Source: Nitrosopumilus sp. (lineage in GTDB: Archaea > Thermoproteota > Nitrososphaeria > Nitrososphaerales > Nitrosopumilaceae). From it: a stretch of DNA of 64,000 nt. Below, piece by piece: positions 12,599 through 51,865 of the stretch (its first letter is position 1; each line of letters begins with the position of its first letter). The stretch spans positions 1,056,001-1,120,000 of the forward strand of contig CBDBLO010000002.1 in the NCBI GenBank assembly GCA_965207075.1, read 5' to 3'. The notes beneath the pieces were generated by a model that worked only from the letters and a program-made list of their open reading frames with translations, ran no database searches and had not been told where the DNA came from. Position numbers and translations under genes: made by a program.

Positions 12599-14165
<1,567 letters not shown>

Positions 14166-14185
<20 letters not shown>

Positions 14186-31931: not shown

Positions 31932-32170
31932 CTTCGGCGGCGAAAAGTTGGATGGCGCCTCTTCAACAGATATGCTTAAAACATATTGGTGGCGGTAGCA
32001 TTACTATGGATTTACATCCCCTTGCAACCGGGCGTAAACTCTACACCGTAGCCACACTTTGCACACGACGGGCGAACTCATACCATGCAGGACAAAAAAA
32101 GCGTATGCCGCTAGACGAAAACCAGGATCAATGCTTTGCTAGGAGAGTCGCGCTGGTGTGATGGCTGGAC

Positions 32171-35100: not shown

Positions 35101-38100
35101 CGGCGCGGGGCACATAGCCTACCCTAGCGGCCTCATCCTCGGCCTGGACGGCGTTGACGTCTATGAGGGCAGCGGCGGCAGCGCCCATGCTGTCATCGCG
35201 CAGAACATGCACAGCGGCGTCCAGGTGGTGGACGTCTCGGCGCCATACAAGCCGGCCCTCCTGGGGACCACCCACGACGACACCCACCTCAAGCTGGCCG
35301 GCGCCCAGGATGCGGCCACGTTCAGCGTCGGCGGCAGGGTCTACGCGATAGTCACGGCCTTTGATGACGACGGCGCCCACGTGTTATCGATAGACGCCGC
35401 AACCCCCGCGCCCGCGCCCCCGGTAATCACGCTCAACGGGGCGTCTCCGGTCCGGATAACTGTAGGTTCCGACTATGGCGCCGACGCCGGGGCCACCTGC
35501 GTTGACGAGGCAGACGGCGACATCACCGGCCGCATGCAGGTCGCCTCGACAGTCGATACGGACGTCCCGGGAAGCTACACCGTCACATACACGTGCATCG
35601 GCTCGTCCGGCCAGGCCGCAACCGCCGTCCGGGAGGTCCGGGTGGAGGGTGCCGCGGCGCCTGCCTTCCTCTCAGCCTCGTACTCGGCCGGCAACGGCAC
35701 GCTTGCGGTCGCCTTTGACATGCCGGTCAACTCGACGGTCCACCTGGACCGCCTGCACGTGCGCGATGCGGGGCAGTCCTCCGGCGGCACCGCGCTGGAG
35801 GGGGCCGCCGCCTGGTCGGTGTCGGGACCGACACTGGACGTGAGCCTGACCGCCACCCAGACGGCCGCCGTTGCAGGCCTGGCAGTCCCGCAGCTGGACA
35901 TAGGCCAGGACGCCGTATTCAGCGCGGCCGGCGCCGGGATAGCGGCCGCGCCGGACAGGCCCATCCTGGTCGACGGGAACGGCACGGCGTCCGACGACGA
36001 GCCGCCCACCCGGAGCTTTGCCGCCGTGCTGGATCCGCCCGCCCCCCTCGGCTCCAGAGACATCGGCAGGATCACCCTGAACAGCTCCGTCCCCGGGACC
36101 ATCCAGGCGACCTGGGAGGAGCCTTCCGAGGATCCGGCCAACTACCGCATCGTGTGGGCCAAGGTCGGCGAGCCCTTCAAGACGTGGACAGACCCGTCCG
36201 GCAACGCCTTCCCGACTGCCCCCTCCCATACCATCACCGGCCTGGAAGGGGGCGAGCAGTACAAGGTGAAGATTCGCGCCTCATACGCCGGGACGAGCGG
36301 CGGCTGGAGCGGCGAGCTGGCCGTCACCGTCGCGGAGTCGGCGCCTGCCAACCGCCCCCCGGCCGTCGACGCCGGCCCCGACCGGACCGTCCAAAAAGGG
36401 GAGACTGTCACGCTGTCTGGCACCGCCACCGACCCGGACGGTGATCCGATGGCCTATGTGTGGACCTCGGACCGGCCCGGCCTGTCCGTCTCGGGAGGCC
36501 GCACCCTCTCGCCCTCGTTTGCCGCCGCCGGGGCATCCTCGGACACCACCATCACCTTTACCCTGACGGCCACCGACCCGCACAACGCCACCGGCTCGGA
36601 CACCGTGGCCGTCACCGTCCTGAACGCGGACTCCCCGCCCCGGAACATAGTCGTGCTGGAGCCCCCCGGCACACAGGGCCCCCGTGACATAGGCACCATC
36701 ACGCTCAACGGCTCCCTGCCCGGGACCATCCAGGCGACGTGGGCTGGGCCTTCCGTGGATCCGGCCGACTACCGCATCATATGGGCAAAGTCAGGCGACC
36801 CCTACAAGACGTGGACCGACCCGTCCGGCAACGCCTTCCCGGCGGAACCGTCCCACACGATCACGGGGCTCGAGGAGGGCGAGGAGTACAAGGTAAAGAT
36901 ACGCGCCCGGTACGGCCCCGACGGTTCGGGCGGCTGGAGCGGCCAGGCTGCCATCACAGTCGCGGCGTCCCAGCCGGCCAGCCCGCCCCCCGCAGACCGC
37001 CATGGCCCCTTTGTCACCACCTGGAAGACCACCTCCCCGGGCGAGTCGATTACCATCCCGGTGGGGGGCGCCCCTGGCACCTACACGGTAGACTGGGGTG
37101 ACGGGACCGTGTCTGCAAACGTGACCGGCAGCCAGATACACGCGTACGACGCCCCCGGGACCCACACCGTCAGCATATCCGGCAACTTTGAGAAGATATA
37201 CCTCAACGGGCAGCCAAACGCAGAGAAGCTCCAGTCCATAGAGCAGTGGGGCGACGTGGGCTGGACGTCGATGAACTCGGCGTTTGAGGGGGCCTCAAAG
37301 ATGGTCTACCGCGCAACCGACACGCCGGACCTTTCGGCAGTGACCGACATGTCTGAGATGTTCCACGACGCGTCCTCCTTTGACGGCGACATCTCAGGCT
37401 GGGACGTCTCCTCCGTGACTGACATGCAGTGGATGTTCCACGGCGCCTCCTCCTTCAACCAGAACCTCTCCTCATGGGACGTCTCCTCCGTGACTGACAT
37501 GTCGCGCATGTTCTCCCTGGCCTACAACTTCAACGGCGACGTCTCAGGCTGGGACGTCTCCTCCGTGACTGACATGGGCACAATGTTCAGCCAGACCCCC
37601 TTTGACGGCGACATATCCGGCTGGGACGTCTCCTCCGTCACCGACATGCACTCCATGTTCTCATTTGCCGCCTCCTTTGACGGCGACGTATCCGGCTGGG
37701 ACGTCTCCTCCGTCACCGACATGCACACGATGTTCTCCGGAGCTAGATCCTTTGACGGCGACATCTCAGGCTGGGACGTCTCCTCCGCGACCAACACGTT
37801 TAGGATGTTCTTTGGCGCCTCCTCCTTCAACCAGAACCTCTCCTCGTGGGACGTCTCCTCTGCGACCAACCTGCGGGGGATGTTCTACGAGGCCTCCTCC
37901 TTTGACGGCGACATATCCGGCTGGGACGTCTCCTCTGCCACCGACGTCTCCAGAATGTTTGCGCATGCCGCCTCCTTTGACGGCGACATATCCGGCTGGG
38001 ACGTCTCCTCCGTCACCGACATGCACGCGATGTTCTACGAGGCCTCCTCCTTTGACGGCGACATATCCGGCTGGGACGTCTCCTCCGTCACCGACATGCA

Positions 38101-39505
38101 CGATATGTTCTACAACGCCGCCTCCTTTGACGGCGACATCTCCGGATGGGACGTCTCCTCCGCGACCAACATGAGCGGCATGTTCGAGGGCGCCAACTCC
38201 TTTGGCCAAAACCTGGGGAACTGGTACGTCGTCCTCGATGCCGTCCAGACCGTCGGCCAGGACGGGGAGATAGGAAGCATATCCGCGCAAAACCCGTTCC
38301 TTGGCAGCCACAGGCCCGCATACGGACTGGGCTCGGGCCATGACTCTGGCTCCTTTGAGATAACCGACGGCTCCGTACTAAAGCTCAAGACCCCCTACGA
38401 CGCCGCAAGAGACCCGTACGTAGTGACCGTAACGTCTACCGGATACTTTGGCACCCACAACTTCCGCATATTTGAGATCACGCTTGCCGCAACTGGGACG
38501 AACGACACCTCTGTCACGGTGCGGGACGTTACCGACGATCTGAGGCCGTCCACGGTGGTGCTGGGACCCAAGGAAGCGCCCAACTCCCGCGACATAGGAA
38601 CCATCACCCTGACCAGCCTCCAGCCCGGCACCATTGAGGCATCATGGGCGGAACCCGCAGACACGCCTGCAGACTACCGTATAGCGTGGGCAAAGTCCGG
38701 CGAGCCCTACAAGACGTGGACCGACCTGTCGGGCAACGCCTTCCCGACGGAACCGTCCTATACGATCACGGGGCTCGAGGGGGGCGAGGGGTACAAGGTA
38801 CAGATAGTAGCCCGGTACGGTCCGGGCAGTTCGGGCGACTGGAGCGGGGCCGCAGTAATCATCGTCCGGGCTTCCCACTCCGACAATCCGCCGGCCGTAG
38901 ATGCCGGGACAGACCAGGCAGTACGCGAGGGCGACACCGTCACACTGCGCGGCACGGCGTCAGACCCCGACGGCGACGCGATGACCTACCTGTGGACGCA
39001 CGACATGCAGGGCCTTGGAATATCGCTTGGCAACGCGACGGCCCTTTCAACCACGTTTGCCGCGCCCAGTGTGGACTCTGAGGCCGCCGTGACGTTTACG
39101 CTTACCGCAACTGACGAGAACGGCGCCGCCGGGTCCGACACCGTGACCGTCACGGTACGGGACGCTCCAAGCGATCCGCCTGCAAACGTGGTCGTTCTGG
39201 AGCCCATCGGCACCCAGGGCCCCCGCGACATAGGCACCATCACGCTCAACGGCTCCCTGCCCGGGACCATCCAGGCGACGTGGGAGGGGCCCTCGGAGGA
39301 TCCCGCGAACTACCGCATCATGTGGGCCAAGGTCGGCGAGCCCTACAAGACGTGGGCCGACCCGTCGGGCAACGCGTTCCCGACTGCCCCCGCCCATGCC
39401 ATCACCGGCCTGGAGGGGGGCGAGCAGTACAAGGTCAAGGTGCGCGCCTCCTATGCCGGCACCGCGGGGGGCTGGAGCGGCGAGCTGGCCATCACCGTGC
39501 GATGA
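32171..39505 (+). CDS. 2444-aa modular surface protein: LVIVD-like propeller repeats, 4 DUF5011 Ig domains, 4 FN3, PKD-like and DUF285/BspA-type repeats
   Basis: N-terminal hydrophobic segment; GVQIVNVTDPANP repeats; YxDAGATCxDEADGDLT; GTIQATW...TITGLE; VDAGPD; FDGDISGWDVSSVTDMxxMF. Confidence 0.9.
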   Translation: MTTTDSLPQDRARTVPARSARLCLHGTAGSAAALRLAGCGILIALLCAGVALLATAGLAPSPGDEPARVSSGAAMHPDHASALFGAGRTTTTTMANPANLAFAAHDSPVTGSLEVVAHMKDGVDGFLELHGAKNSIAFGIGGGTYAAIAADRDNGIQMVDVTDPANPVAIAHVRDSDTRALEGVREMDTFEVDGRTYLVAVSKYEGVQIIDVTDPRNPAAAGYLLDNAWRSLGGAGDVATFAVDGEIYAAVPASLDHALQIVNLTDPLNPALAGRLIDDSSLELGGALGVDVFDAGGSTYAIVTGKKDNGIQIVNVTDPYNPTAAGRLADSAALELYHAFDVAVFVVNQSTYAVVAGYEDYGIQVIDISDPYRPVAAGRISDPNGWMMYVQVDTFTAGGHPYALLASYDGAHLHLVDLSDPYSPAELASIRPPEYRKGFAAEVFGVGGSLYALTTSTIEDSAYIVGINMSVDLPPGLVPNPPATTYVRAGSAYEDAGATCTDEADGDLTGQVRAVSTVNFAIPGVYTVTYACSDSAGNEATAVRTVTVAEAGPAATPEGAPAITVLGADPAAVAVGDAYSDAGATCVDEADGDLTGQVRAASGVNVYASGNYTVTYACSDSDGNEATAVRTVTVTDTDAPDIALVGGATVRLYAGDPYTDEGATCIDEVEGDLEDYVAATGEVDTATAGLYTVTYTCSDSAGNEATTSRTVDVLEPIHLIADGVGNFTELDGAEDVAVFSRDGGTYAVIAAYHDDGVQVVDLSGPARPVAAGSLSDGASTELDGARGVAVFSRDGGTYAVVAAYHDDGVQVVDLSDPARPVAAGSLSDGASTELDGARGVAVFSRDGGTYAVVTGYLDDGVQIVNVTDPANPVAAGSLSDDASTELDGAAGVAVFNRDGGTYAVVAAYRDDGVQIVNVTDPANPAAAGRARDGQGLHLDGAMGVAVFERRYNTHAVVTTFMDNTVQIVRVTDPSQPSGAGHIAYPSGLILGLDGVDVYEGSGGSAHAVIAQNMHSGVQVVDVSAPYKPALLGTTHDDTHLKLAGAQDAATFSVGGRVYAIVTAFDDDGAHVLSIDAATPAPAPPVITLNGASPVRITVGSDYGADAGATCVDEADGDITGRMQVASTVDTDVPGSYTVTYTCIGSSGQAATAVREVRVEGAAAPAFLSASYSAGNGTLAVAFDMPVNSTVHLDRLHVRDAGQSSGGTALEGAAAWSVSGPTLDVSLTATQTAAVAGLAVPQLDIGQDAVFSAAGAGIAAAPDRPILVDGNGTASDDEPPTRSFAAVLDPPAPLGSRDIGRITLNSSVPGTIQATWEEPSEDPANYRIVWAKVGEPFKTWTDPSGNAFPTAPSHTITGLEGGEQYKVKIRASYAGTSGGWSGELAVTVAESAPANRPPAVDAGPDRTVQKGETVTLSGTATDPDGDPMAYVWTSDRPGLSVSGGRTLSPSFAAAGASSDTTITFTLTATDPHNATGSDTVAVTVLNADSPPRNIVVLEPPGTQGPRDIGTITLNGSLPGTIQATWAGPSVDPADYRIIWAKSGDPYKTWTDPSGNAFPAEPSHTITGLEEGEEYKVKIRARYGPDGSGGWSGQAAITVAASQPASPPPADRHGPFVTTWKTTSPGESITIPVGGAPGTYTVDWGDGTVSANVTGSQIHAYDAPGTHTVSISGNFEKIYLNGQPNAEKLQSIEQWGDVGWTSMNSAFEGASKMVYRATDTPDLSAVTDMSEMFHDASSFDGDISGWDVSSVTDMQWMFHGASSFNQNLSSWDVSSVTDMSRMFSLAYNFNGDVSGWDVSSVTDMGTMFSQTPFDGDISGWDVSSVTDMHSMFSFAASFDGDVSGWDVSSVTDMHTMFSGARSFDGDISGWDVSSATNTFRMFFGASSFNQNLSSWDVSSATNLRGMFYEASSFDGDISGWDVSSATDVSRMFAHAASFDGDISGWDVSSVTDMHAMFYEASSFDGDISGWDVSSVTDMHDMFYNAASFDGDISGWDVSSATNMSGMFEGANSFGQNLGNWYVVLDAVQTVGQDGEIGSISAQNPFLGSHRPAYGLGSGHDSGSFEITDGSVLKLKTPYDAARDPYVVTVTSTGYFGTHNFRIFEITLAATGTNDTSVTVRDVTDDLRPSTVVLGPKEAPNSRDIGTITLTSLQPGTIEASWAEPADTPADYRIAWAKSGEPYKTWTDLSGNAFPTEPSYTITGLEGGEGYKVQIVARYGPGSSGDWSGAAVIIVRASHSDNPPAVDAGTDQAVREGDTVTLRGTASDPDGDAMTYLWTHDMQGLGISLGNATALSTTFAAPSVDSEAAVTFTLTATDENGAAGSDTVTVTVRDAPSDPPANVVVLEPIGTQGPRDIGTITLNGSLPGTIQATWEGPSEDPANYRIMWAKVGEPYKTWADPSGNAFPTAPAHAITGLEGGEQYKVKVRASYAGTAGGWSGELAITVR
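37328..38225 (+). repeat. Tandem ~75-nt coding repeats (DUF285 25-aa repeat), 11 WDVSS units plus caps
   Basis: Near-constant TTTGACGGCGACATMTCMGGCTGGGACGTCTCCTCCGT alternating with variable codons. Confidence 0.92.
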
Positions 39506-39697
39506 CCCTCACGCGCGTGGCGCGCGGAGGCCTCCGGAGCGCCGCCCGGCGAGGGGCGCCGGACTGGTGCCATGACTGCAGACTGCTGCGCTGGGCGATC
39601 TTTGCGCCCGCGTCTTGCAATTCTTGGAGGACGGGCGGCGCTGTCCCGCCTTGCAGATTTGCTCCCCAATCTCAGTTAACCGCACCCGGCAGTCAAG

Positions 39698-39949
39698 GCG
39701 CGACGTCACGGGGGATCGCGATGACATCCGGGGAGACCGGGCACGCCATGGGGGCGGCCCGGCGCGCGTGCGGGCGCGCTATGCGCCGTGTCGCGGCGCT
39801 CCGAGAGGCAGTCGGGCAGGCCGGGGGCGGCGCCCGGGCCACGAGGCGCCCGGCCGGCCTTGCCGCGCGCGCCCCCACGCGGCGGCGCTAGGTCAAAAAC
39901 GCGCGCGAGGAGGCCGTCCGGCCGATGCAAGGTCCGCGTGAATCCATGC
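39698..39949 (+). mobile_element. Internally deleted, decayed IS66 remnant with right TIR
   Basis: Aligns by eye to ~30904-30984 and ~31764-31931; ends CGCGTGAATCCATGC versus intact CACGTGAATTCATAC. Confidence 0.88.
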
Positions 39950-40041
39950 GCCGCCGCCTGCTGTTGCATACTTAATAAACATAATCGAGTCACCGATCGC
40001 ATGTTCCGTATTCGGATAGCCGCGCCACCCGGTGGCGTGAT

Positions 40042-43000
40042 ATGACTGCCAAGGTGCTGCGGACAGCCGTGACAGCGGCGGCCCTGCTGGCGGTAGCGGT
40101 TCTGGGGATGGAGCAGCCCTACTGGCACGGCCTGACGTGGGAGGCCGACCCGTCCCACCCGGACACGCCGGCTCCCGGATGGCATGCGCTAGCGCAGGTC
40201 GTCCAGACGCTGGTTCTGAGCCCGACTGACCGGATCACCGACACCGGCAGCCTCGAGCTTGACGGCGCCCGCGGCATAGCCATCTTCGAGATAGGCGAGC
40301 GCACCTACGCGGCCGTCGCGGCCTACTACGACGACGGCGTCCAGATACTTGACCTGACCGACCCCGGCAACATCAGTGCAACCGACCAGATCGACGACAC
40401 CGACAGCCTCGAGCTTGACGGCGCGGCCGACATTGACATCTTCGAGATAGGCGAGCGCACCTACGCGGCCGTCGCGGCCTACTACGACGACGGCGTCCAG
40501 ATACTTGACCTGACCGACCCCGGCAACATCAGGGCGGCAGGCCAGATAACCGACACCATTCGCCTCGAGCTTTACGGCGCCCGCGGCATCGACACCTTCG
40601 AGATGGACGGGCGCACCTACGCGGTCGTCGCCGGACACAAGGACCACGGCGTCCAGATACTTAACCTGACCGACCCCGGCAACATCAGCGCAACCGACCA
40701 GATCGACGACACCGACAGCCTCGAGCTTTACGGCGCCCGCGGCATAGCCACCTTCGAGATGGGCGGGCGCACCTACGCGGCCGTCTCGGGACTCAAGGAG
40801 GGCGGCATCCAGATGCTCGACCTGACCGACCCCGGCAACGCCGTGGCAATCGGGCGGATCACCGGCGATGGCGTCCGCGATCTTGTAGGCCCTGCCGAGA
40901 TCGCCACCTTCAAGATAGGCGAGCGCATCCACGCGGCCGTCGCAGACAACTACGGCAACAGCGTTCAGATACTTGACCTGAGCCAACCCGGCAAACCTGA
41001 ATGGTCCGGCCAGATCGGCGACACCGACAGCCTCGAGCTTTACCACGCAACCGGCATCACCACCTTCAAGATGGGCGAGCGCACCTACGCGGCCGCTGCC
41101 TCGTGGGGTGACAACGGCGTCCAGGTGCTCGACCTGACCGACCCCGACAACATCGGGGCAGTCGGCCAGATCACCGACACAGGCAGCCTCGAGCTTGGCG
41201 GCGCGCTAGACGTTGCCGTCTTCAAGACAGGCGGGCTCACATATGCGGCCGTCACGGGACACGACGATGACGGCGTCCAGATAATCGGCATGGCCGTGGA
41301 TCACCTGCCAGCCGCCGACGCCGGCCCCGACCAGACAGTCCTGGAGGGAGCCGCCGTCACCCTCCGCGCCACCGCCTCCGGCCCGGACGGCGACCCCCTG
41401 ACCTACGGCTGGTCCCACGACCACCCAACCCTGAACATAACACTGGCCGACCCGGCGGCCCTTGCGACCACCTTCACCGCCCCGCAGGTGTCCTCCAACA
41501 CCACCGTTACCTTTACCTTCACCGCCACCGACCCCCGTAACGCCACCGCCTCGGATGCCGTCACCATAACCATCCTGGACGCCCCCGCAAAGGAGCCGCC
41601 GCCGTCCCTGAACTTCACCGCCGTGCTGGAGCCAACCGGGACGCTGGGCCCACGCGACATCGGCAGGATAGCCCTGCTGAGTTCACAGCCGGGTACAATC
41701 AACGCCACCTGGGCGGAGCCCCGGGGTGCATCTGACGACCCTCCGGCCAACTACAGGATATCCTGGACCAAGGCCGGCGAGAGCTTCCTGCCCTGGACGG
41801 ACCCGGCCGGCAACGCCTACCCGACCGAGCCCTCCTACGACATCACGGGCCTGGAGGACGGCGAGCAGTACGAGGTGAAGGTGCGCGCCTCGTACTCCGG
41901 AAGGGCCGGGCCCTGGAGCGGCGAGCTGGCCATAACCGTCGCAGGGCCTGCTGCCGACAACCGCCCCCCGACCGCCGACGCCGGCCCCGACCGGACGGTC
42001 ATGGAGGGAGACGCCGTCACCCTCGACGCCATCGCATACGATCCCGACCCCGGCGACACCCTGACCTACGGCTGGTCCCACGATCGGCCCGGCCTGAACA
42101 TAACGCTGGCCGACCCGGCGGCCCTTGCGACCACCTTCACCGCCCCGCAGGTATCCTCCGACACCGCCCTCACCCTCACCCTGAGGATAACAGACGGGTA
42201 CGACGCCACGGCCTCGGATGCCGTCACCATAACCGTTTTGGATGCCCCCGCCGGCGATCCCGCGCGCGCGGGCCACTTTGTCACCACCTGGAGGACCACC
42301 GAGCCGGGCGAGTCGATAACCATCCCGGTGGGGGGCGCCTCGGGCACCTACACGGTCGACTGGGGTGACGGGACCGTCTCGGCCAACGTCACCGGGAGCC
42401 AGACGCACGCGTACGACGCCCCCGGAATCCACATAGTCGGCATATCCGGCGACTTTGCCCGGATATACCTCAACGGCCAGCAGCCCAACGCAAACAAGCT
42501 GGCGTCGATAGAGCAGTGGGGGGACGTGCGGTGGGAATCCATGAAGTCGGCGTTTGCCGGCGCCTCAAACATGGTCTACCGGGCGGCCGACGCCCCCGAC
42601 CTGTCCGGCGTAACCGACATGTACCGGACGTTCTCGGGCGCCTCCTCCTTTGACGGCGACCTCTCCGGATGGGACGTCTCCTCGGTGACCGACATGCAGC
42701 AGGCGTTCCGGCAAGCCTCCTCCTTTGACGGCGACCTCTCCGGATGGGACGTCTCCTCGGTGACCGACATGCACAGGATGTTCTCGGGCGCCACCTCATT
42801 CAACGGCGACCTCTCCGGATGGAACGTCTCCTCCGCAACCGACATGCAGCACATGTTTGATGGCGCGGACGCCTTTGATCAGAACCTGGGAAACTGGTAC
42901 ATCGTGCTTGACGGCCTGCAGGTCGGGGAAGCCGGCGGGACGGTCGGGACTATATCCGCGCAGAACGCGTTCCTTGCCGCCCAGGAGCCGACGTACGGGC

Positions 43001-44775
43001 TGGGCCCTGGCGGGGACTCGGGCTCCTTTGAGATAGTCAACAAGACCGTCCTGAAGCTCAGGACCGCCCCGGACGGCGGCACGCCAAAGGGATCCTACGC
43101 GGTGACCGTAACCTCCACCGGCGACTTTGGCACCGGCAACTCCCGCACGCTCGAAGTTACGCCGGAGGTTCGGGCGGTCGAGCCGCCGCCCCTGAACCAC
43201 ACCGCCGTGCTGGAGCCGCCCGACCCGCTCGGCCCCCGCGACATCGGCAGGATATCCCTGGCAAGCTTCCAGCCGGGGACAATCAACGCAACCTGGGTGG
43301 AGCCCCGGGGGGCGTCTGACAACCCTCCGGCCAACTACAGGATATCCTGGACCAAGGCCGGCGAGAGCTTCCTGCCCTGGACGGACCCGGCCGGCAACGC
43401 CTACCCGACCGAGCCCTCCTACGACATCACGGGCCTGGAAGAGGGCGGGCAGTACAAGGTGAAGGTGCGCGCCTCCTACTCCGGCAAGGCCGGGCCCTGG
43501 AGCGGCGATGTCGTGGTGGACGTTGCGAGATCCCCCGATGACCACCCGCCCGCCGCCTACGCCGGCCCTGACAGGGCCGTCCAAGAGGGCTCTGTCGTCC
43601 CCCTCAACGGCACCGCCTCCGACCCCGACGGCGACCCCATGACCTACAGCTGGTCCCACGACCACCCGACCTTGGAGATCGCCTTTGCCAACGCCACGTC
43701 CCCGACGACGACCTTCACTGCCCCGCAGGTCGCCGCCAACACCACCCTCACCCTCACCCTGACCGTCGACGACGGGGACCAGACGGCCTCTGACTCCGCC
43801 ACGGTAACAATCATCGACGCCACCTCCGAACGCCAGCGCGCCGCGCCCACCCCCGCCAACCCCGCCGATAACCGGATCATCCTGCTGCTGCCGCCGACGG
43901 TCAGTGTCGGCCCCGACCTAACCGTCGACGAGGGGTCGCCGGTGTCGCTGTCCGGCATCACCGTCCACGCCGGCGACCAGCCGACCTACCGGTGGACGCA
44001 CGACTCCTCCCTGGACATCGTCCTGAGAGGAGACGCCACCCCGGCCGCCGCGTTCACCGCCCCGTCCGTCGACTCGGACACCACCGTCACGTTCACCCTG
44101 ACCATAACCGACCAATACGGCGCCACCGCCGCCGACACGGTCGACGTCACCGTCCTGAACGTGCCCCCGGGCGACCCGCCGCCTGCCACGATCATCCTGC
44201 TGCCGCCGACGGTCAGTGTCGGCCCCGACCTAACCGTCGACGAGGGGTCGCCGGTGTCGCTGTCCGGCATCACGGTCCACGCCGGCGACCAGCCGACCTA
44301 CAGGTGGACGCACGACTCCGCCCTAGACATCGCCCTGACCGGCGACGCCACCCCGGCCGTCGCGTTCACCGCCCCGGCCGTCGACTCGGACACCACCATC
44401 GCGTTCACCCTGACCATAACCGACCAATACGGCGCCACCGCCGCCGACACGGTCGACGTCACCGTCCTGAACGTGCTCCCGGGCGACCCGCCGGCCGCCC
44501 CGGCCAACCTCAGGGCCACTGCCACTGACACCGCCGTCACGCTCATTTGGGACGACCCGGACGACGATACCATCACCGGCTACAAGGTGCTTTCCCGGAT
44601 GGCCCTGACGGAGTCGAAGCTCTACGTGCTGGTCGCCGACACCGGCTCGGCCGCCGCCACCTACACGGTGGACGGTCTCAATCCGGACACCATCTACGTC
44701 TTCAGGGTGGTGGCAGTCAACGGGCTCGGCGAGTCTGGCGTCTCAAACTTTGTCAGGCTGTCCACCCTGCAGTAG
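40042..44775 (+). CDS. 1577-aa modular surface protein: LVIVD-like repeats, PKD-like, FN3 and DUF285 repeats
   Basis: Signal-like N-terminus; GVQILDLTDPGNI repeats; ADAGPD modules; three FxGDLSGWxVSS repeats; terminal FN3. Confidence 0.9.
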   Translation: MTAKVLRTAVTAAALLAVAVLGMEQPYWHGLTWEADPSHPDTPAPGWHALAQVVQTLVLSPTDRITDTGSLELDGARGIAIFEIGERTYAAVAAYYDDGVQILDLTDPGNISATDQIDDTDSLELDGAADIDIFEIGERTYAAVAAYYDDGVQILDLTDPGNIRAAGQITDTIRLELYGARGIDTFEMDGRTYAVVAGHKDHGVQILNLTDPGNISATDQIDDTDSLELYGARGIATFEMGGRTYAAVSGLKEGGIQMLDLTDPGNAVAIGRITGDGVRDLVGPAEIATFKIGERIHAAVADNYGNSVQILDLSQPGKPEWSGQIGDTDSLELYHATGITTFKMGERTYAAAASWGDNGVQVLDLTDPDNIGAVGQITDTGSLELGGALDVAVFKTGGLTYAAVTGHDDDGVQIIGMAVDHLPAADAGPDQTVLEGAAVTLRATASGPDGDPLTYGWSHDHPTLNITLADPAALATTFTAPQVSSNTTVTFTFTATDPRNATASDAVTITILDAPAKEPPPSLNFTAVLEPTGTLGPRDIGRIALLSSQPGTINATWAEPRGASDDPPANYRISWTKAGESFLPWTDPAGNAYPTEPSYDITGLEDGEQYEVKVRASYSGRAGPWSGELAITVAGPAADNRPPTADAGPDRTVMEGDAVTLDAIAYDPDPGDTLTYGWSHDRPGLNITLADPAALATTFTAPQVSSDTALTLTLRITDGYDATASDAVTITVLDAPAGDPARAGHFVTTWRTTEPGESITIPVGGASGTYTVDWGDGTVSANVTGSQTHAYDAPGIHIVGISGDFARIYLNGQQPNANKLASIEQWGDVRWESMKSAFAGASNMVYRAADAPDLSGVTDMYRTFSGASSFDGDLSGWDVSSVTDMQQAFRQASSFDGDLSGWDVSSVTDMHRMFSGATSFNGDLSGWNVSSATDMQHMFDGADAFDQNLGNWYIVLDGLQVGEAGGTVGTISAQNAFLAAQEPTYGLGPGGDSGSFEIVNKTVLKLRTAPDGGTPKGSYAVTVTSTGDFGTGNSRTLEVTPEVRAVEPPPLNHTAVLEPPDPLGPRDIGRISLASFQPGTINATWVEPRGASDNPPANYRISWTKAGESFLPWTDPAGNAYPTEPSYDITGLEEGGQYKVKVRASYSGKAGPWSGDVVVDVARSPDDHPPAAYAGPDRAVQEGSVVPLNGTASDPDGDPMTYSWSHDHPTLEIAFANATSPTTTFTAPQVAANTTLTLTLTVDDGDQTASDSATVTIIDATSERQRAAPTPANPADNRIILLLPPTVSVGPDLTVDEGSPVSLSGITVHAGDQPTYRWTHDSSLDIVLRGDATPAAAFTAPSVDSDTTVTFTLTITDQYGATAADTVDVTVLNVPPGDPPPATIILLPPTVSVGPDLTVDEGSPVSLSGITVHAGDQPTYRWTHDSALDIALTGDATPAVAFTAPAVDSDTTIAFTLTITDQYGATAADTVDVTVLNVLPGDPPAAPANLRATATDTAVTLIWDDPDDDTITGYKVLSRMALTESKLYVLVADTGSAAATYTVDGLNPDTIYVFRVVAVNGLGESGVSNFVRLSTLQ

Positions 44776-44799
44776 GCCGCGCCCGGCGCGCCGCCTGTG

Positions 44800-45145
44800 C
44801 GCGGACGGCTTGCGGCAGGGGGCGCCAGCCCGTCCCGCCTCGCGGGTCTGCCGCGCGGGCGGCAGCGCTTGCGGCCGTCTGCGCCTTCCGTCTCGTCTCA
44901 TCTCCTCCATCTCCCCTCCTCTCCCCTCTTCATTCCAAAGAACTGGCGGACGGGGGCGCGCTGGGGTTTGCATAATACCTCGGGAGTTTTCCCGAGCGCT
45001 CACCGGCCCTGCCCCTCCGATCCATCGCTGCGCGCAGCTCCTCAATCTCTGAACCGGGGACCTCGTCCTCCTCTACTCCAGTGCGAGCACGCGCCGCTCC
45101 AACTGCCCCCTGCCGGCGCCCCCTGTCCACTTCACGCGGACGGCG
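44800..45145 (-). pseudogene. Decayed IS66 transposase 5' fragment
   Basis: Minus strand reads ...EIEELRAA...RYYANPSAPPSASSLE, homologous to KIEELLAA...KYYTNPDTPPSANSLE of 30491-31912. Confidence 0.8.
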
Positions 45146-45375
45146 GGATTCAAAACACGTGTGGTGACGCGTCCACTGACGAGCCGTTGCCCCCTGGCCA
45201 TCATCGGTAGTACGGCCAGAACGCGCAGGAAGACGGAGGGTGGCCACGCTCCTGACCGTCATAATGGCCGAAAGCAAGTCTTCCTCCTGCCGCCAAATGG
45301 ACTGTAGCATATTATGACGGAATACACCAACATGATCATAAAAATTGATATAATGGTCACGATAGATTGTGACAT

Positions 45376-45594
45376 ATGAGCAGCAGTGAAGAATCGGAAT
45401 TTGTATTGAAACTTCTGCAAAACAGGGGGAAGTATGCAGGCAAGTGGATCGCAGTCTTGGACTCTAAGGTTATCGCAGAAGGGGACAGACTCGAAGCGGT
45501 CTACAGGGATGCGACAAAGGTGGCAGACGGGCGGACTCCTCTGTTTGAACGAATCCCCTTGCGGCAGGAAGAGCGCGAGACGTTGATTCTATAA
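45376..45594 (+). CDS. DUF5678-like small protein
   Basis: KYAGKWIAVLDSKVIAEGDRLEAVY...PLFERIP; lower GC; TATA-like element ~25 nt upstream. Confidence 0.8.
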   Translation: MSSSEESEFVLKLLQNRGKYAGKWIAVLDSKVIAEGDRLEAVYRDATKVADGRTPLFERIPLRQEERETLIL

Positions 45595-45625
45595 CGTCAT
45601 ATTACAGCGGTACGTGAGGTGCGAC

Positions 45626-46159
45626 ATGTCTGCTGGCAGGCTTTATTTCAAATATGGGACAGATCGGTTGGGGAAGAAGAGCGATGATGGTGACAATGGC
45701 TGTGGCGCTGTAAGCGGGGCTGTGCCAGCCTCCAGGCCGCGTATAGATGTCATATTTAGAAAATTATCAAAACCCCCAGATCCATTGACAAATCCAGAAT
45801 TCAGGGCGCGCGCACTGGTAGATTCGGGGGCCGACATCTGTTTTATTCCAAAAGCCGTGGCAGATGTCCTGCGGCTTGACACCGATGAGAAGTCCAAAAA
45901 AGCCATCATCGGCGCAGGAGGAGTGTTCACCGCGTATAGGTCAAACATGCATCTGGAAATGTTGTACGAGAGGAAGCGTGTCCGCATTGGCATGGTAGAA
46001 GTTGCCTTCCCAGAAGACGATCCGCCCGGAGTTGAACCTGAGAGAAGTATCCTCATTGGCCGCAGCGGCCTGTTCACCCAGTACAAGGTAACGTTCAATG
46101 ACAGGCAGAAGATCATAGAGCTGGAAATGTTTGACGATGTAGCAGGATGCAGAACATAA
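45626..46159 (+). CDS. Retropepsin-like (clan AA) single-domain aspartic protease
   Basis: ALVDSGADICFIP catalytic motif, IIGAGG flap-like segment, ILIGRSGLF. Confidence 0.85.
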   Translation: MSAGRLYFKYGTDRLGKKSDDGDNGCGAVSGAVPASRPRIDVIFRKLSKPPDPLTNPEFRARALVDSGADICFIPKAVADVLRLDTDEKSKKAIIGAGGVFTAYRSNMHLEMLYERKRVRIGMVEVAFPEDDPPGVEPERSILIGRSGLFTQYKVTFNDRQKIIELEMFDDVAGCRT

Positions 46160-46222
46160 AAGACGGAAAGACTGTCGGAGGCATGACTCGGGAACTGCTT
46201 CCTTGAATATGAATAGAAAAAG

Positions 46223-46303
46223 TGGACCGGGTGGGATTCGGGCCCGCGACCTTGACTTGCGCAGCGTGGGTGCGGCATCCAAACCACGCTGGACGGCCGG
46301 TCC
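46223..46303 (-). pseudogene. Decayed tRNA-like sequence (Val-like, apparent anticodon CAC)
   Basis: Minus strand GGACCGG CC GTCC AGCGTGGTTT GGAT G CCGCA CCCACGC TGCGC AAGTCAAGGTC GCGGG CCCGAAT CCCAC CCGGTCC A: perfect 7-bp acceptor stem and recognisable D, anticodon and T arms, but invariant U positions read C. Confidence 0.7.
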
Positions 46304-46351
46304 GTTTTGGCTTGAGAATGCGCCGCTTTTTTGTCTATTGCCAGTTTGTTT

Positions 46352-46595
46352 GTATGAATTCGCATGGCCCTTGTACCGGCCGTCCTCTTCGTACGCGTTT
46401 CTGCCCCGCCTCCGCCACGCGGGAACGCGCGCGGCAAAGCCGGCCGGGCGCCCCATGGCCGGGCGCCCCCCGGTTTACCAAATCATCTTACGGAGCACCG
46501 CGATATGGCGCAGCGCCCTTCCGCCCGCGCTGTTCGCGGTGGGATCGACGCCGGGATGACCCCGGGAGCGCAAGCATGCGCAGCGCCTGCCGCCA
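46352..46595 (-). mobile_element. Decayed IS66 3' end with TIR
   Basis: Starts GTATGAATTCGCATGG and follows the reverse complement of ~31690-31931. Confidence 0.85.
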
Positions 46596-46812
46596 TCGCC
46601 GCCACAGCTTGCCAGACGCCCTGATCATACCGGGATCACACTTTTCTGTCACGGTACCAGTCCGTTACATACTGCGTCTTGTCTTTGGGTCCGGCACGCA
46701 CGGCCGTCTCCGCGGCATCGGGGCGCGTGGGGCCAGCCGCCATTATGGCGCACCGGCCGGGGGGTGGGGGTGGGGGAAGGACACGGTGGCAGGTTCGGGG
46801 ATTTCTGGCATC

Positions 46813-48093
46813 CTACGGCAGGGTGGACAGCCTTACAAAGTTGGACCGGCCAGACTCGCCGCCCTCGCCGAGTGCGATCACCCGGAACACGTAGATCGTC
46901 CCCGGATCGAGGCCGTCTACCACGTGCGACGTGTCCGTGGAATTTGTGTCTGCCACAAGCACCGAGAGTGTGTTCTGCGTCTGGGGCGTCCTTGAGAGGA
47001 TCTTGTAGCCGGTTACACCGTCTGCTGAGGGCTGCTCCCAGTCCAGGGTTATTGAGGTCCTGGCTGCCGTGGCAGCGAGGTTCTGCGGTGCTGCCGGCGG
47101 CTCTGGCGCGGACTCTGTGACAGATACCGTGGCCTGGCCGCTCCAGTCGCCTGCTGGCCCCCCGTACCTTGCGCGCACCTTCACGTTGTACTCTCCCTCC
47201 TCAAGACCTGTTATGGTGTGGGAGGGCTCGGCAGGATATGCGTTGCCTGTCAGGTCCGTCCACGTCTTGAAGGACTCGCCTGACTTGGCCCACATGATGC
47301 GGTAGTCGACGGGCTCTTCCGCGGGGACGTCCCAAGTCGCCAGCACGGTGCCCGGCCCCGTGTTCTCAAGTATAATGCCGGCTACGTCGCGCGGCCCTGA
47401 TGCGGCTGTCTGATTGCTTTCGAGATTGGTTGCAGACAGCGATTGAACTTCGACTGTGATTGTGACCGTATCATTTGAAACCGACTCTCCATATTCTATC
47501 ACCTCAAGCATGAATGTCAGGACGGCGTGGCCGTCAGGCGCTGTAAACGACGGCGACTCCCAGTCAGCGTTTCTCAGGTTTACTGTTTCACCCGTGAGTT
47601 GGCTCCAGGAATAAATCAGGTCGAAGCCGCGGGGATGCGTTGACGCGGAGCCGTCAAGCGTGACTTCGGCTCTAGGTTGGACTGTCTGGTTCTGCCCTGC
47701 ATTGGCTGTAGGCGGATGGTAAGGGACTCTGATTGTGACGGTATCAGTCGAGGTACGGCTTGCACCGTCCGTCACGGTGAGCATAAAGACGAGTGTTGTG
47801 GTTTCTGACGGCGCGGTGAAGGTGGGCTCCTCTGCCGCGGGGTCTAAAAGCGTTACGGTGATGCCGCCGGTCTGGTTCCACATGTACGACAGGTCGGTGC
47901 CAGTCGAGCCGCTGCCGTAAAGAGTGACTGCGGCGCCGGTGTACACCCCCTGATCCCATCCCGCGTAGGCTACCGGCGCCGGCTGGGGCGCATGGGTTGC
48001 GTGAGTCTCGGAGATGAATGGGGCTGACGCCAGGACCAAGAGTGACACTGACAGGGCGCACAGCAGGGACGTCTCTCTTATCGCGCGGGCCAT
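46813..48093 (-). CDS. Secreted/surface protein with 2 PKD-like and 2 FN3 domains
   Basis: Signal peptide; AYAGWDQ and ANAGQNQ modules; the KTWTD-type FN3; terminal FN3 ending SNFVRLSTLP. Confidence 0.85.
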   Translation of the reverse strand: MARAIRETSLLCALSVSLLVLASAPFISETHATHAPQPAPVAYAGWDQGVYTGAAVTLYGSGSTGTDLSYMWNQTGGITVTLLDPAAEEPTFTAPSETTTLVFMLTVTDGASRTSTDTVTIRVPYHPPTANAGQNQTVQPRAEVTLDGSASTHPRGFDLIYSWSQLTGETVNLRNADWESPSFTAPDGHAVLTFMLEVIEYGESVSNDTVTITVEVQSLSATNLESNQTAASGPRDVAGIILENTGPGTVLATWDVPAEEPVDYRIMWAKSGESFKTWTDLTGNAYPAEPSHTITGLEEGEYNVKVRARYGGPAGDWSGQATVSVTESAPEPPAAPQNLAATAARTSITLDWEQPSADGVTGYKILSRTPQTQNTLSVLVADTNSTDTSHVVDGLDPGTIYVFRVIALGEGGESGRSNFVRLSTLP

Positions 48094-50218: not shown

Positions 50219-51865
50219 GTATGCACTCAGGTCGACATATCTCACGACACGAGCATATGTGAAGCGCCGTCTCAGCATGTCGCAGCGATGGCGGCGGCAT
50301 GAGGCGTTGTCGTTGTAGCCTGCATGGTCTGTTCTGGGCAGTCGGGCGGCTTGAATATGCGCCAGTCCGGATCCTCGATCATGCGCTCCACCGCCGCGCG
50401 CGGGAACATACCCACCTTTTGGCACGTGCGCGCGACGGACACCAGCACGGAGAACACCTGGCGCCCCTCCGGCTCGGACAGCTGGTGGCGCACGTTGCGG
50501 TGCAGCACGACCGTGTCGCGTATCTCCAGCTCGGCGGCGTTGTTGTGAGGGGGCATGCCCGGATGCCTCAGGAACGTGAACAGGTGCGGGGCGGCGTTCT
50601 CCAGCGTTTCGCGGAACCTGTGGCCCTCTTTGTAGCCTGACGCTATGCGCAGCACGGCCTTCTCCAGGCCCAGGCACTCTGCACCGGAGGCCGACTCGCG
50701 GTGTTTGATCCTCTTGTACATGGAGAGCAGCCTGCGGTAGCACGACAGGTCGTCCCCGCCGTTTCTCACGGCGTATTTCTCGGCCTCGCGCAGCAGGTGC
50801 ACCCAGCAGCGCTGCCTGACGGGAAGGATGCCGTACGCGACATACCCGTCAGTGACTGACGGCTTGCCGAGCAGGCCGCCAGTGCAGGTCCAGCACGGCC
50901 GCGGCCCTGCTCGGGGCTGCCACCACGTACGTGGCGTTCCCCGCCGTCGCCAGCCACGCGTACCCCCTTTTGCCGTTCATCTTGATGACCGACTCGTCAA
51001 ACTGCACGAACGCGGCGCCCGAGATCTCCTCCAGGATGCCGTCGTAGGCGGCCTTGAGCAGGTTCCTTATCGCCCTGCGCGCGTTCCAGACGGCGTTCGC
51101 TGACACCGAAAAGCCGTAGAGTGCCCCGAAATAGTACGCTATGGTCGCGTCGGTGGACCTCCTGGCGTAGTATTCGAGTATGAATCCCAGGGCCCCGGGG
51201 CCGAACGACGTGCCGGGCAGCAGCATGGGGGCCCGGGCGGTGCTGACCATATCGCACCTCTTGCACAGGCCGCGCTCGAGCACGTACGCGACGGTCTCGA
51301 TGCGCCTGCCGTCCCCGTCCGGAAAGTCGTTTGCGATCCTTGTGACGGGTGCCGCGTACGCGAGGCGCCCGCGCCCGCAGTTCTGGCACCGGCGCAGGCG
51401 CAGGCGCGTCCTCCTCGAGGGCCTGTTGCCGTGGGACGCGCCCTCGTGCCCCTCCGGAGGCCCCTGCGCCCGGCCGCCGCATGTCCCTCCGGTTCAGGTC
51501 CCCCCTCGCCCTTCTCCTCTGCCAGCCGCTTCCGGAATGCATCCCGCTCCGCATTGTACATGGAATCAGTGGAGGACGGCGCGTTCGGATTCTCGTATTT
51601 GGCCAGCCTCCTGTCCTGCTCTGCAATGGTTTCCATGAGCAGGTCTATCTGCTCTTCAAGGCCGGCCCTTGTCCTGTCACGCTCGGCCTTCACCTGGGCT
51701 ACTGCATCCTGCAGCCTCTTGATCTCCGCCGTCATCTTGGCCAGCTCGCCGCGCAGAAGCGCCATCTCGGACCTGCCCATGGGAATTCGTAAAGTATATG
51801 ATCTATAAACCCATTGTTTTGCCGAAATAATCGACAGGGTCACAGGCGTGAACCTGAATGCATAC
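50219..51865 (-). mobile_element. Second IS66-family element, 1647 bp, with target duplication
   Basis: TIRs GTATGCACTCAGGT (50219) and reverse complement GTATGCATTCAGGT (ends 51865); 8-bp duplication GAGGCGGC at 50211-50218 and 51866-51873. Confidence 0.92.
50272..51780 (-). pseudogene. Frameshifted IS66 transposase
   Basis: YENPNAPSS, QFDES, VTDGYVAY, QRCWVHLLRE and PHNNAAELEIR are spread over frames, with shifts near 51462 and 50881. Confidence 0.85.

Follow-up and report, generated by a model that had tools for sequence, protein, structure and literature searches.

Regional, one-way decay of dead DNA from A:T to G:C in giant surface-protein gene clusters of a sponge-symbiotic archaeon

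We analyzed a 64,000-nucleotide stretch of DNA from Nitrosopumilus sp., referred to here as the window, and the decayed copies of an IS66-family insertion sequence (IS) that it carries. The window corresponds to positions 1056001 to 1120000 of contig C2 in a genome (G000; 2.23 Mb, 2 contigs, 60% GC) of an archaeal sponge symbiont. The decayed copies lie among genes for giant surface proteins, and their one-way decay from A:T to G:C is real and polarized. An earlier note on the window, made from the sequence alone, had described such a skew; the observation was right and even understated, because the skew extends to other element families. What survives of the idea of targeting, also raised in that note, is regional: the clearly skewed pieces lie in flanks of at least 64% GC, in clusters of giant surface-protein genes. 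Below, W denotes an A/T site and S a G/C site, and W>S and S>W changes count both transitions and transversions unless stated otherwise.

Results

IS66 and its decayed copies in the window

The reference for the comparison was an intact IS66-family element at positions 30415 to 31934 (+ strand, 1520 bp, 66% GC), the sole full-length copy in the genome. It has a single open reading frame (ORF) of 473 aa at 30491 to 31912, with a GC content at third codon positions (GC3) of 0.89, encoding a DDE transposase according to its match to PF03050 (E value of 5.5e-29, 101.9 bits). The terminal inverted repeats of 15 nt, read from the sequence, are GTATGAATTCACGTG at 30415 and its complement ending at 31934. 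Canonical IS66 elements possess the accessory genes tnpA and tnpB and an 8-bp target duplication. The intact element, with one ORF only, has no accessory tnpA/tnpB, and the 8 bases flanking each side differ, so no target duplication is present. It fits the single-ORF subgroup only, and its family membership rests on the transposase. A search of the genome gave 12 partial matches to this element with blastn and 15 with nhmmer, the self-match not being counted, and the remnants described below align to it with both programs.

Three IS66 remnants of the window are located between and after the giant genes at 32171 to 39505 and 40042 to 44775. The first, B1095 (39698 to 39947, + strand, about 79% GC), is internally deleted, IS positions 490 to 569 being joined to 1349 to 1515. 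Over 245 aligned bases, it differed from the intact element by 48 A:T>G:C transitions, 6 G:C>A:T transitions, and 7 transversions, in good agreement with the approximately 50, 6, and 7 counted earlier by hand for 39698 to 39949. In a shorter blastn alignment, 40 of the 80 W sites had undergone W>S changes and 5 of the 135 S sites S>W changes (Fisher's test, p = 7e-16). B1101 (44876 to 45162, - strand, IS positions 54 to 326) showed 34 A:T>G:C transitions, 14 G:C>A:T transitions, and 14 transversions over 227 bases. The corresponding numbers were 43, 24, and 27 over 368 bases for B1102 (46352 to 46737, - strand, IS positions 1141 to 1517), which sits at the edge of the G+C-rich cluster and has flanks of 59% GC. 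The right terminal repeat is kept in the remnants as a mutated copy, and A:T>G:C changes fall there too.

A dead copy of the tRNA-Val(CAC) locus was found at about 46220 to 46350 (- strand), the live locus being at C2 1640714. With the live gene as the reference and the ortholog of a relative as the outgroup, this copy had about 11 A:T>G:C transitions, no G:C>A:T transition, and a 10-nt deletion; the transversions in the aligned part, read by eye, were 1 A>C, 1 A>T, 1 C>G, and 1 G>T. ARAGORN called no tRNA in the window. The claim that the other remnants and this tRNA-like sequence share the skew of B1095 therefore holds. When 46193 to 46350 was compared with C2 1640667 to 1640807, the dead copy was found to retain about 30 nt of downstream sequence that adjoin the live tRNA-Val gene in the close relative G070, not in G000, which suggests a rearrangement or an old integration site.

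The region was also compared with public sequences, using the Logan assembled contigs of sequencing runs, which drop rare variants. From 39255 to 40310, contigs from 4 public runs of 2 studies showed 0 differences, and public-run contigs also bridged the junctions at 31845 to 33703 and 44447 to 47154. The sequence and its context are thus real and not due to an assembly error. The differences listed for public-run contigs, for example 25 A>G, 20 T>C, 30 G>A, and 20 C>T in X1, stem mostly from paralogous repeats and IS copies.

A dead F9 element is the cleanest case of the skew

Besides IS66, at least 14 IS-like families have near-identical copies in the genome. The cleanest case of the skew lies outside the window and belongs to family F9, whose transposase we take, from its motifs, to be of the rve type. 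This dead full-length copy (C2 798726 to 799834), just upstream of a gene for a 2799-aa protein, carries frameshifts and an insertion of 73 nt, and its catalytic motif is destroyed. Relative to the majority of the 3 live F9 copies, 1029 sites gave 138 A:T>G:C transitions and 4 G:C>A:T transitions. The transversions amounted to 17/1029 (1.7%), namely, 5 W>S, 6 S>W, and 6 S<>S, and apart from A:T>G:C transitions, the dead copy thus differed from the resident live copies at only 21/1029 sites. Overall, W>S changes were found at 143/429 sites and S>W changes at 10/600 sites (Fisher's test, p = 1e-48). With a 79%-identical copy (C2 259484) as the outgroup, 117 W>S transitions were assigned to the dead copy and 1 to the live lineage; the test also assigned 14 S>W transitions to the live lineage, probably in part parallel changes in the outgroup.

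One of the seven copies of family F1 is located beside the dead F9 copy, inside the same cluster. It has 23 private changes (14 A:T>G:C transitions, 6 G:C>A:T transitions, and 3 transversions), compared with 0 to 1 for each of the six other copies. Private changes also numbered 0 to 1 per copy in families F2 (four copies), F3 (four copies), F7, and F8. The private changes of the 3-copy IS families comprised 30 A:T>G:C versus 29 G:C>A:T transitions, but these are not truly polarized and serve only as a transition-to-transversion baseline. The live IS transposase genes have GC3 values of 0.88 to 0.89, well above the genome median of 0.78.

Direction of change and origin in place

The IS66 changes were polarized by codon-position and within-genome parsimony tests. 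An IS66 outgroup was sought in 60 relatives, and the best matches, with 59% and 49% amino acid identity over about 75 residues, were too distant at the base level. As regards direction and INDEPENDENCE, the W>S fractions of the skewed IS66 pieces were 0.39, 0.42, and 0.52 at codon positions 1, 2, and 3, and the S>W fractions were 0.10, 0.09, and 0.12, respectively; the noncoding ends showed W>S changes at 46/110 sites and S>W changes at 5/94 sites. Changes at all codon positions and in the terminal repeat had been reported in the earlier note. Such an even distribution over codon positions is impossible in a functional lineage, and the changes therefore arose in dead copies.

We then examined the W>S sites common to pairs of remnants. 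B1095 and the IS66 remnant B1729 shared 17 such sites versus 12.1 expected by chance (p = 0.016), B1095 and B1102 shared 13 versus 10.7 expected, and B1729 and B1102 shared 10 versus 6.9 expected. Part of this excess comes from changes in the intact IS66 itself. The W>S sites are mostly private to each copy, which indicates that the remnants decayed largely independently and do not derive from a G+C-rich IS66 lineage; near-identity to such a lineage would have spoken against decay, as the earlier note had pointed out. A segmental duplication of remnant plus gene as the origin of the sites shared by B1095 and B1729 was rejected, because the two remnants face their genes with opposite ends. In the closest relative, G070 (93% identity in flanking genes), neither the dead F9 copy nor the giant genes of the window have an ortholog. 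G070 has an IS66 piece (contig C157), but it is equally distant from all G000 copies, so the decay cannot be dated against speciation.

The skew is regional

Copies of IS elements were collected over the whole genome, polarized, and analyzed for spectrum and context, an approach outlined in the earlier note; the skew proved to be regional and the context weak. Compared with the intact copy, four IS66 remnants elsewhere in the genome (C2 542, 617, 673, and 2059 kb) were symmetric: over 1402 bases, they showed 71 W>S versus 68 S>W transitions, along with 52 transversions. Their private changes, small in number, were 17 G:C>A:T transitions and 4 G:C>T:A changes versus 3 A:T>G:C changes, and the private transitions of the intact IS66, also few, were 6 G:C>A:T versus 1 A:T>G:C. 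A set of degenerate copies was built from one representative for each of 14 further IS-like families plus IS66, giving 40 fragments after de-duplication. The implied equilibrium GC content (GC*) rose with the GC content of the flanking 6 kb, the fragment itself being excluded (Spearman coefficient of 0.55, p = 3e-4, n = 40). All 7 fragments with flanks of at least 0.64 GC gave a GC* of 0.73 to 0.97, whereas the other 33 of the 40, with flanks below 0.64, gave values of 0.42 to 0.78, most of them near their own G+C content (0.5 to 0.7). All clearly skewed remnants had flanks of at least 64% GC and lay within or bordering the clusters of giant surface-protein genes, B1102, at the edge, having flanks of 59%.

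Age could be separated from region by means of transversions. The transversion divergence of the dead F9 copy was 1.7%, versus 2.4 to 4.3% (7/291, 10/269, and 33/763) for the symmetric IS66 remnants. Since the dead F9 copy is no older by this measure than the unskewed remnants, region and not age decides, and the idea that the skewed pieces are simply older was rejected. In the congener G002, dead IS fragments decay towards A:T, with 43 versus 96, 9 versus 19, and 6 versus 14 transitions (W>S versus S>W); none of the fragments fetched lay in G+C-rich flanks, so they serve as a control only. The one degenerate copy from G018 had mainly deletions, with 8 substitutions.

Character of the process

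Along the element, the density of hits was even, and A>G and T>C changes were interleaved. There were no strand-coordinated runs (59 runs observed versus 59.3 ± 4.9 expected), and no consistent asymmetry between A>G and T>C was found across seven pieces. The sequence context was weak. An A followed by C or G was changed more often, and AAA, TAA, and AAT were largely spared; CAC was the highest (18/36 and 45/68), with chi-square p values of 1e-5 for the IS66 pieces and 0.07 for F9. Depending on its neighbors, the rate of mutated A was 0.22 to 0.39 in the F9 copy and 0.26 to 0.51 in the IS66 pieces. The ratio of W>S transitions to W>S transversions was 138:5 in the dead F9 copy versus 71:12 in the symmetric remnants (p = 0.004). 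We also considered selection acting against stop codons or spurious promoters and rejected it, since its effects would extend beyond transitions. Many small events on double-stranded DNA, with G·T and A·C mispairs turned into G:C, would agree with the pattern better than one single-strand editing burst.

Repair and deaminase genes

Of the repair genes named in the earlier note, EndoV, MutS_V, and canonical NucS were searched for and not found in G000. EndoV also had no match in 13 other family genomes searched and was present in 43 of the 81 genomes of the order. Instead of a canonical NucS, G000 has only a partial NucS_C domain (model positions 2 to 67 of 124) in a 459-aa protein, and NucS_C had no match in 11 other family members searched. 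Neither Vsr nor C5 DNA methylase gave a match in G000. Two HhH-GPD proteins are present, one endonuclease-III-like (a 243-aa ORF at about C2 229312 to 230043; 195 bits versus an equivalog cutoff of 211.7) and one AlkA-like (about C2 560359 to 560973). No candidate for a DNA adenine deaminase was found in G000; its one protein with a CDA fold is of the dCMP/cytidine-deaminase type and is encoded far from the clusters. The repair gene absences are common to the family, including its A+T-rich genomes, and therefore cannot alone explain either the G+C content of the lineage or a regional effect.

The giant gene clusters and their surroundings

The clusters are located at about 32 to 47 kb of the window (C2 1088 to 1101 kb), at C2 778 to 813 kb, and at C2 1719 to 1736 kb, and they are among the G+C-richest parts of the chromosome. 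Their giant genes have a GC3 of 0.85 to 0.92 compared with the genome median of 0.78. In the window, the gene at 32171 to 39505 (+ strand) encodes a 2444-aa protein with DUF285, Bact_surface_Ig-like, fn3, PKD, and LVIVD domains, and the one at 40042 to 44775 (+ strand) a 1577-aa protein with PKD, DUF285, fn3, and Big_9 domains. A third, at 52464 to 57815 (+ strand), encodes 1783 aa with P_proprotein, DUF285, and Bact_surface_Ig-like domains and has internal repeats of 921 bp. The A+T content at four-fold sites was 15.5% in the first gene, versus 21% in ordinary genes, and 11.6% in the second, in which C made up 59% of these sites on the coding strand. A C-over-G asymmetry of the coding strand was seen in the giant genes of the clusters (for example, C2 778658 to 786127 and window 40042 to 44775), with C at 0.52 to 0.64 and G at 0.21 to 0.32 of four-fold sites, versus 0.39 and 0.40 in ordinary genes; an A:T>G:C drive on both strands does not explain it.

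The giant genes are rich in internal and shared repeats. Within the first giant gene, 258 bases (window positions 33744 to 34003) and 156 bases (34415 to 34572) are missing from contigs of two public runs. Direct repeats of 156 nt occur there, and their spacing matches the 156-base skip, so the repeat number varies between samples. Given these repeats and this variation, the giant-gene loci are likely hot spots of recombination or repair.

Between B1101 and B1102 lies a low-GC insert (45300 to 46200, + strand, 35 to 55% GC per 100 bp) with a DUF5678 gene (45376 to 45594, + strand, GC3 of 0.59) and a gene for a retropepsin-like aspartyl protease (45614 to 46159, + strand, GC3 of 0.55). At 50504 to 51605 (C2 1106504 to 1107605), a weak nhmmer match to IS66 (E value of 2e-4) and a short match to another IS family were found, perhaps marking an even older remnant next to the third giant gene. 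At 12599 to 14185, about 1.2 kb consists of 12-nt tandem repeats (at least 76 register-shifted copies, 69% GC) with a strong A-over-T skew, and these sit within a 528-aa ORF for a low-complexity repeat protein.

For the genome as a whole, the gene set (1811 genes, 79% of the genome) came from a crude caller based on codon usage. The median GC3 was 0.78, the GC content at second codon positions (GC2) was 0.45, and intergenic DNA had 57% GC overall. In 200-bp windows, only 57 tracts reached at least 78% GC, together 17.4 kb or 0.8% of contig C2. Extremely GC-rich intergenic tracts, as reported in the earlier note, thus do exist, but "many" was an overstatement. Within one 78%-GC tract, ARAGORN made four overlapping "tRNA-???" calls (C2 712737 to 713009) with a 4-base anticodon and a spacing of 60 nt, probably a tandem repeat mimicking a cloverleaf. 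Blocks are duplicated with 92 to 99% identity between contig C1 (46 kb) and C2 33 to 87 kb and between C2 1 to 33 kb and C2 2120 to 2180 kb, and C1 resembles a diverged second version of part of C2. Either the assembly contains strain haplotypes, or these segments were duplicated recently.

Discussion

The explanation that we tentatively favor is a regional drive from A:T to G:C in the clusters, in which transition mismatches are resolved towards G:C. Such a drive would act by transitions, on both strands and gradually, and would be confined to a few giant, repeat-rich gene clusters. The live genes of the clusters would display it only as a very high GC3 (0.85 to 0.92). The dead DNA between the giant genes, being free of selection, would record it almost purely, the recorders being the IS66 pieces, the dead F9 copy, the older F1 copy, and the dead tRNA-Val copy. 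As for the cause, we infer that G·T and A·C mispairs could be resolved towards G:C, the mispairs arising from recombination heteroduplexes or from repair synthesis at recombination-prone loci. This would amount to a process resembling GC-biased gene conversion but limited to transition mismatches, in a lineage without MutS, canonical NucS, and EndoV.

Several points weigh against such a drive. Classical GC-biased gene conversion should favor W>S transversions as well, and these were not raised (5 versus 138 transitions). No T:G-specific glycosylase was identified among the HhH-GPD proteins of G000. On the dead F9 copy, the reverse transition is perhaps depleted, with G:C>A:T transitions and all transversions at 4:17 versus a background of 29:14 or 69:52 (p = 4e-4 and 0.002), but this depends on the baseline and is not clear against the dead IS fragments of the congener, with 96 S>W transitions to 180 transversions (about 0.5:1). 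Recombination at the clusters is presumed from the repeats seen in the contigs. Two paralogous IS66-like pieces inside the cluster at C2 778 to 813 kb (C2 788465 to 788650 and 806892 to 807077) are without skew, with 11 to 12 versus 11 transitions and 36 transversions over 173 bases, although in a weak alignment. The 0.9-kb low-GC segment inside the cluster of the window is not G+C enriched; it is probably a recent arrival or held by selection. Finally, intergenic GC content (0.65 versus 0.594, p = 0.002) and the GC3 of genes other than the giant ones (0.87 versus 0.78, p = 7e-8) differed between the clusters and the rest, but these tests are circular, because the clusters were first picked by their G+C content, and are not used as evidence.

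The main alternative, which we consider rather unlikely, is a local mutagenic input, that is, extra A:T>G:C mutations in the clusters with no fixation bias. They could come from error-prone, uncorrected repair or break-induced synthesis at the repeat-rich genes or, given a lineage without endonuclease V, from the deamination of adenine to hypoxanthine where DNA is exposed. In mismatch-repair-defective Escherichia coli, uncorrected replication errors give A:T>G:C transitions with an NAC bias. A mutagen would account for the near restriction of W>S changes to transitions (138 versus 5) and for the preference for A followed by C or G, with CAC the highest and AAA, TAA, and AAT spared (p = 1e-5 in the IS66 pieces), and it agrees with the finding that the dead F9 copy still shows transversions and G:C>A:T changes. 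EndoV and MutS_V were not found in G000, nor was canonical NucS in the 11 family members searched, but the repair genes are missing family-wide, A+T-rich relatives included, and so offer no regional explanation. A purely additive mutagen does not predict a depletion of G:C>A:T changes relative to transversions (4:17 versus 29:14). Damage to single-stranded DNA would be expected to leave strand-coordinated clusters, which were not seen, and no candidate DNA adenine deaminase was found in the genome. An A:T>G:C hypermutation restricted to the giant surface-protein clusters, either programmed or a by-product of break repair, seems doubtful to us; it would be the prokaryotic equivalent of hypermutation at immunoglobulin loci or of isochores at recombination hotspots. 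If it were true, the cell-surface repertoire would diversify faster, with the dead IS and tRNA copies as passive recorders, and it would be one engine of the unexplained high G+C content of sponge-associated ammonia-oxidizing archaea.

A foreign history is very unlikely. In that case, either the clusters would have come, remnants included, from a relative richer in G+C, or the remnants would descend from a distinct G+C-rich IS lineage, and the skew would have arisen elsewhere or be only apparent. Such a history would fit the C richness of the cluster genes at four-fold sites (0.52 to 0.64), the absence of orthologs of the cluster genes from the closest relative, G070, and the excess of W>S sites shared by B1095 and B1729 (17 versus 12.1, p = 0.016). 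However, each IS66 remnant has mostly private W>S sites, and the dead F9 copy, with 21/1029 other differences from the live copies, belongs to the same IS population, a resident F1 element being inserted right beside it. Neither the G+C-rich congener G031 nor G063 and G078 yielded a close match to the cluster of the window, and a donor would need the same unexplained one-way process.

The earlier note had offered two explanations, neither of which fared well. The first, a genome-wide GC-driving mutation bias or repair defect behind the high G+C content of the lineage, is largely refuted and highly improbable. It could draw on the gap between GC3 (0.78) and GC2 (0.45), on the failure to find MutS, canonical NucS, and EndoV, and on two A+T-rich IS-end fragments outside the clusters that gained G+C (25 versus 8 and 17 versus 6). 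Elevated and unexplained G+C contents have also been reported for sponge-associated relatives, 47 to 67% versus 32.5 to 34.2% in most of the free-living relatives analyzed (PMC7848895). Against a genome-wide bias, the IS66 remnants outside the clusters are symmetric (71 versus 68 transitions), and their private changes together with those of the intact IS66 go towards A:T (23 G:C>A:T versus 4 A:T>G:C transitions). The 33/40 fragments in flanks below 64% GC gave a GC* of 0.42 to 0.78, mostly near their own G+C, and intergenic DNA stands at 57% GC. The most skewed copy is not older by transversions than the unskewed ones, dead fragments of the congener decay towards A:T, and the repair genes are missing throughout the family, A+T-rich genera included. 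The second, a repeat-targeted editing or "reverse RIP" (RIP being the repeat-induced point mutation of fungi), in which a defense senses duplicated DNA and deaminates its adenines, is extremely unlikely. In its favor, the affected DNA consists of IS copies or duplicates, the changes are almost purely transitions, and the giant genes themselves abound in repeats. However, six F1, four F2, four F3, and other multicopy IS elements are essentially unmutated (0 to 1 private changes), the intact IS66 next to the cluster has escaped damage, and a dead tRNA copy with a length of about 130 nt is affected as strongly as the IS pieces. The context is weak and without strand-coordinated runs, and there are no sharp mutation boundaries at repeat ends, neighboring unique genes having a high GC3.

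Full-text literature searches did not turn up any report of dead DNA in archaea decaying one-way from A:T to G:C, and G+C-rich gene-cluster islands in these symbionts were not found described either. The findings address the question of how prokaryotes come to have a higher G+C content than expected from A+T-biased mutation, through selection or through biased gene conversion. They also bear on the diversification of giant surface proteins by symbionts and on the high G+C content of sponge-associated Thaumarchaeota. The same IS families and outgroup-polarized copies provide good internal controls, which makes the question testable in this organism.

Among known systems, GC-biased gene conversion and isochore-like regional G+C content, found in vertebrates and proposed for prokaryotes, resemble our case in the regional, recombination-associated push from A:T to G:C, in the raised GC3 of live genes and the clustered W>S changes in unconstrained DNA, and in that the reverse change may be depleted. 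The regional excess of W>S over S>W was found here in F9 (143/429 W sites versus 10/600 S sites) and in 7/7 fragments with high-GC flanks. Unlike in that system, W>S transversions were not raised (5 versus 138, with a background of 12 versus 71, p = 0.004), and the regions span only 15 to 35 kb in a 2.2-Mb archaeal genome, where recombination is presumed from repeats. Mismatch-repair-defective bacteria share the dominance of A:T>G:C transitions, the preference for A followed by C, and the lack of a MutS match, but their mutations occur genome-wide, whereas ours are confined to a few clusters and the gene absences are common to A+T-rich relatives. Fungal RIP likewise leaves dead mobile elements with a dense, one-directional load of transitions. 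However, it acts in the opposite direction (C:G>T:A), and here multicopy IS elements were untouched (6/7 F1 copies with 0 to 1 changes), with no dependence on duplication and no strong dinucleotide context, and neighboring unique genes were affected too. Hyperediting by ADAR-like or single-strand deaminases differs in that no strand-coordinated A>G clusters were seen here (59 versus 59.3 ± 4.9 runs). Diversity-generating retroelements, compared by change pattern only, with no search for a reverse transcriptase made, turn adenines of one strand into any base within a short variable repeat, whereas the changes here were A>G and T>C only, on both strands, over whole elements of 0.25 to 1.1 kb. 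In the amelioration of foreign DNA, inserted DNA similarly drifts towards the composition of its surroundings, but our remnants overshoot the genome mean (76 to 80% versus 60%) with almost one substitution class instead of a general relaxation. Mutation in prokaryotes is reported to be universally A+T biased (PMC2936529 and PMC3267392). Outside the clusters, the private changes of dead IS66 copies go towards A:T in the same manner, as do those of the congener fragments, whereas inside the clusters the net balance per site tips the other way by more than ten-fold. One genome thus holds both regimes, towards A:T or level over most of its length and almost purely from A:T to G:C in a few clusters.

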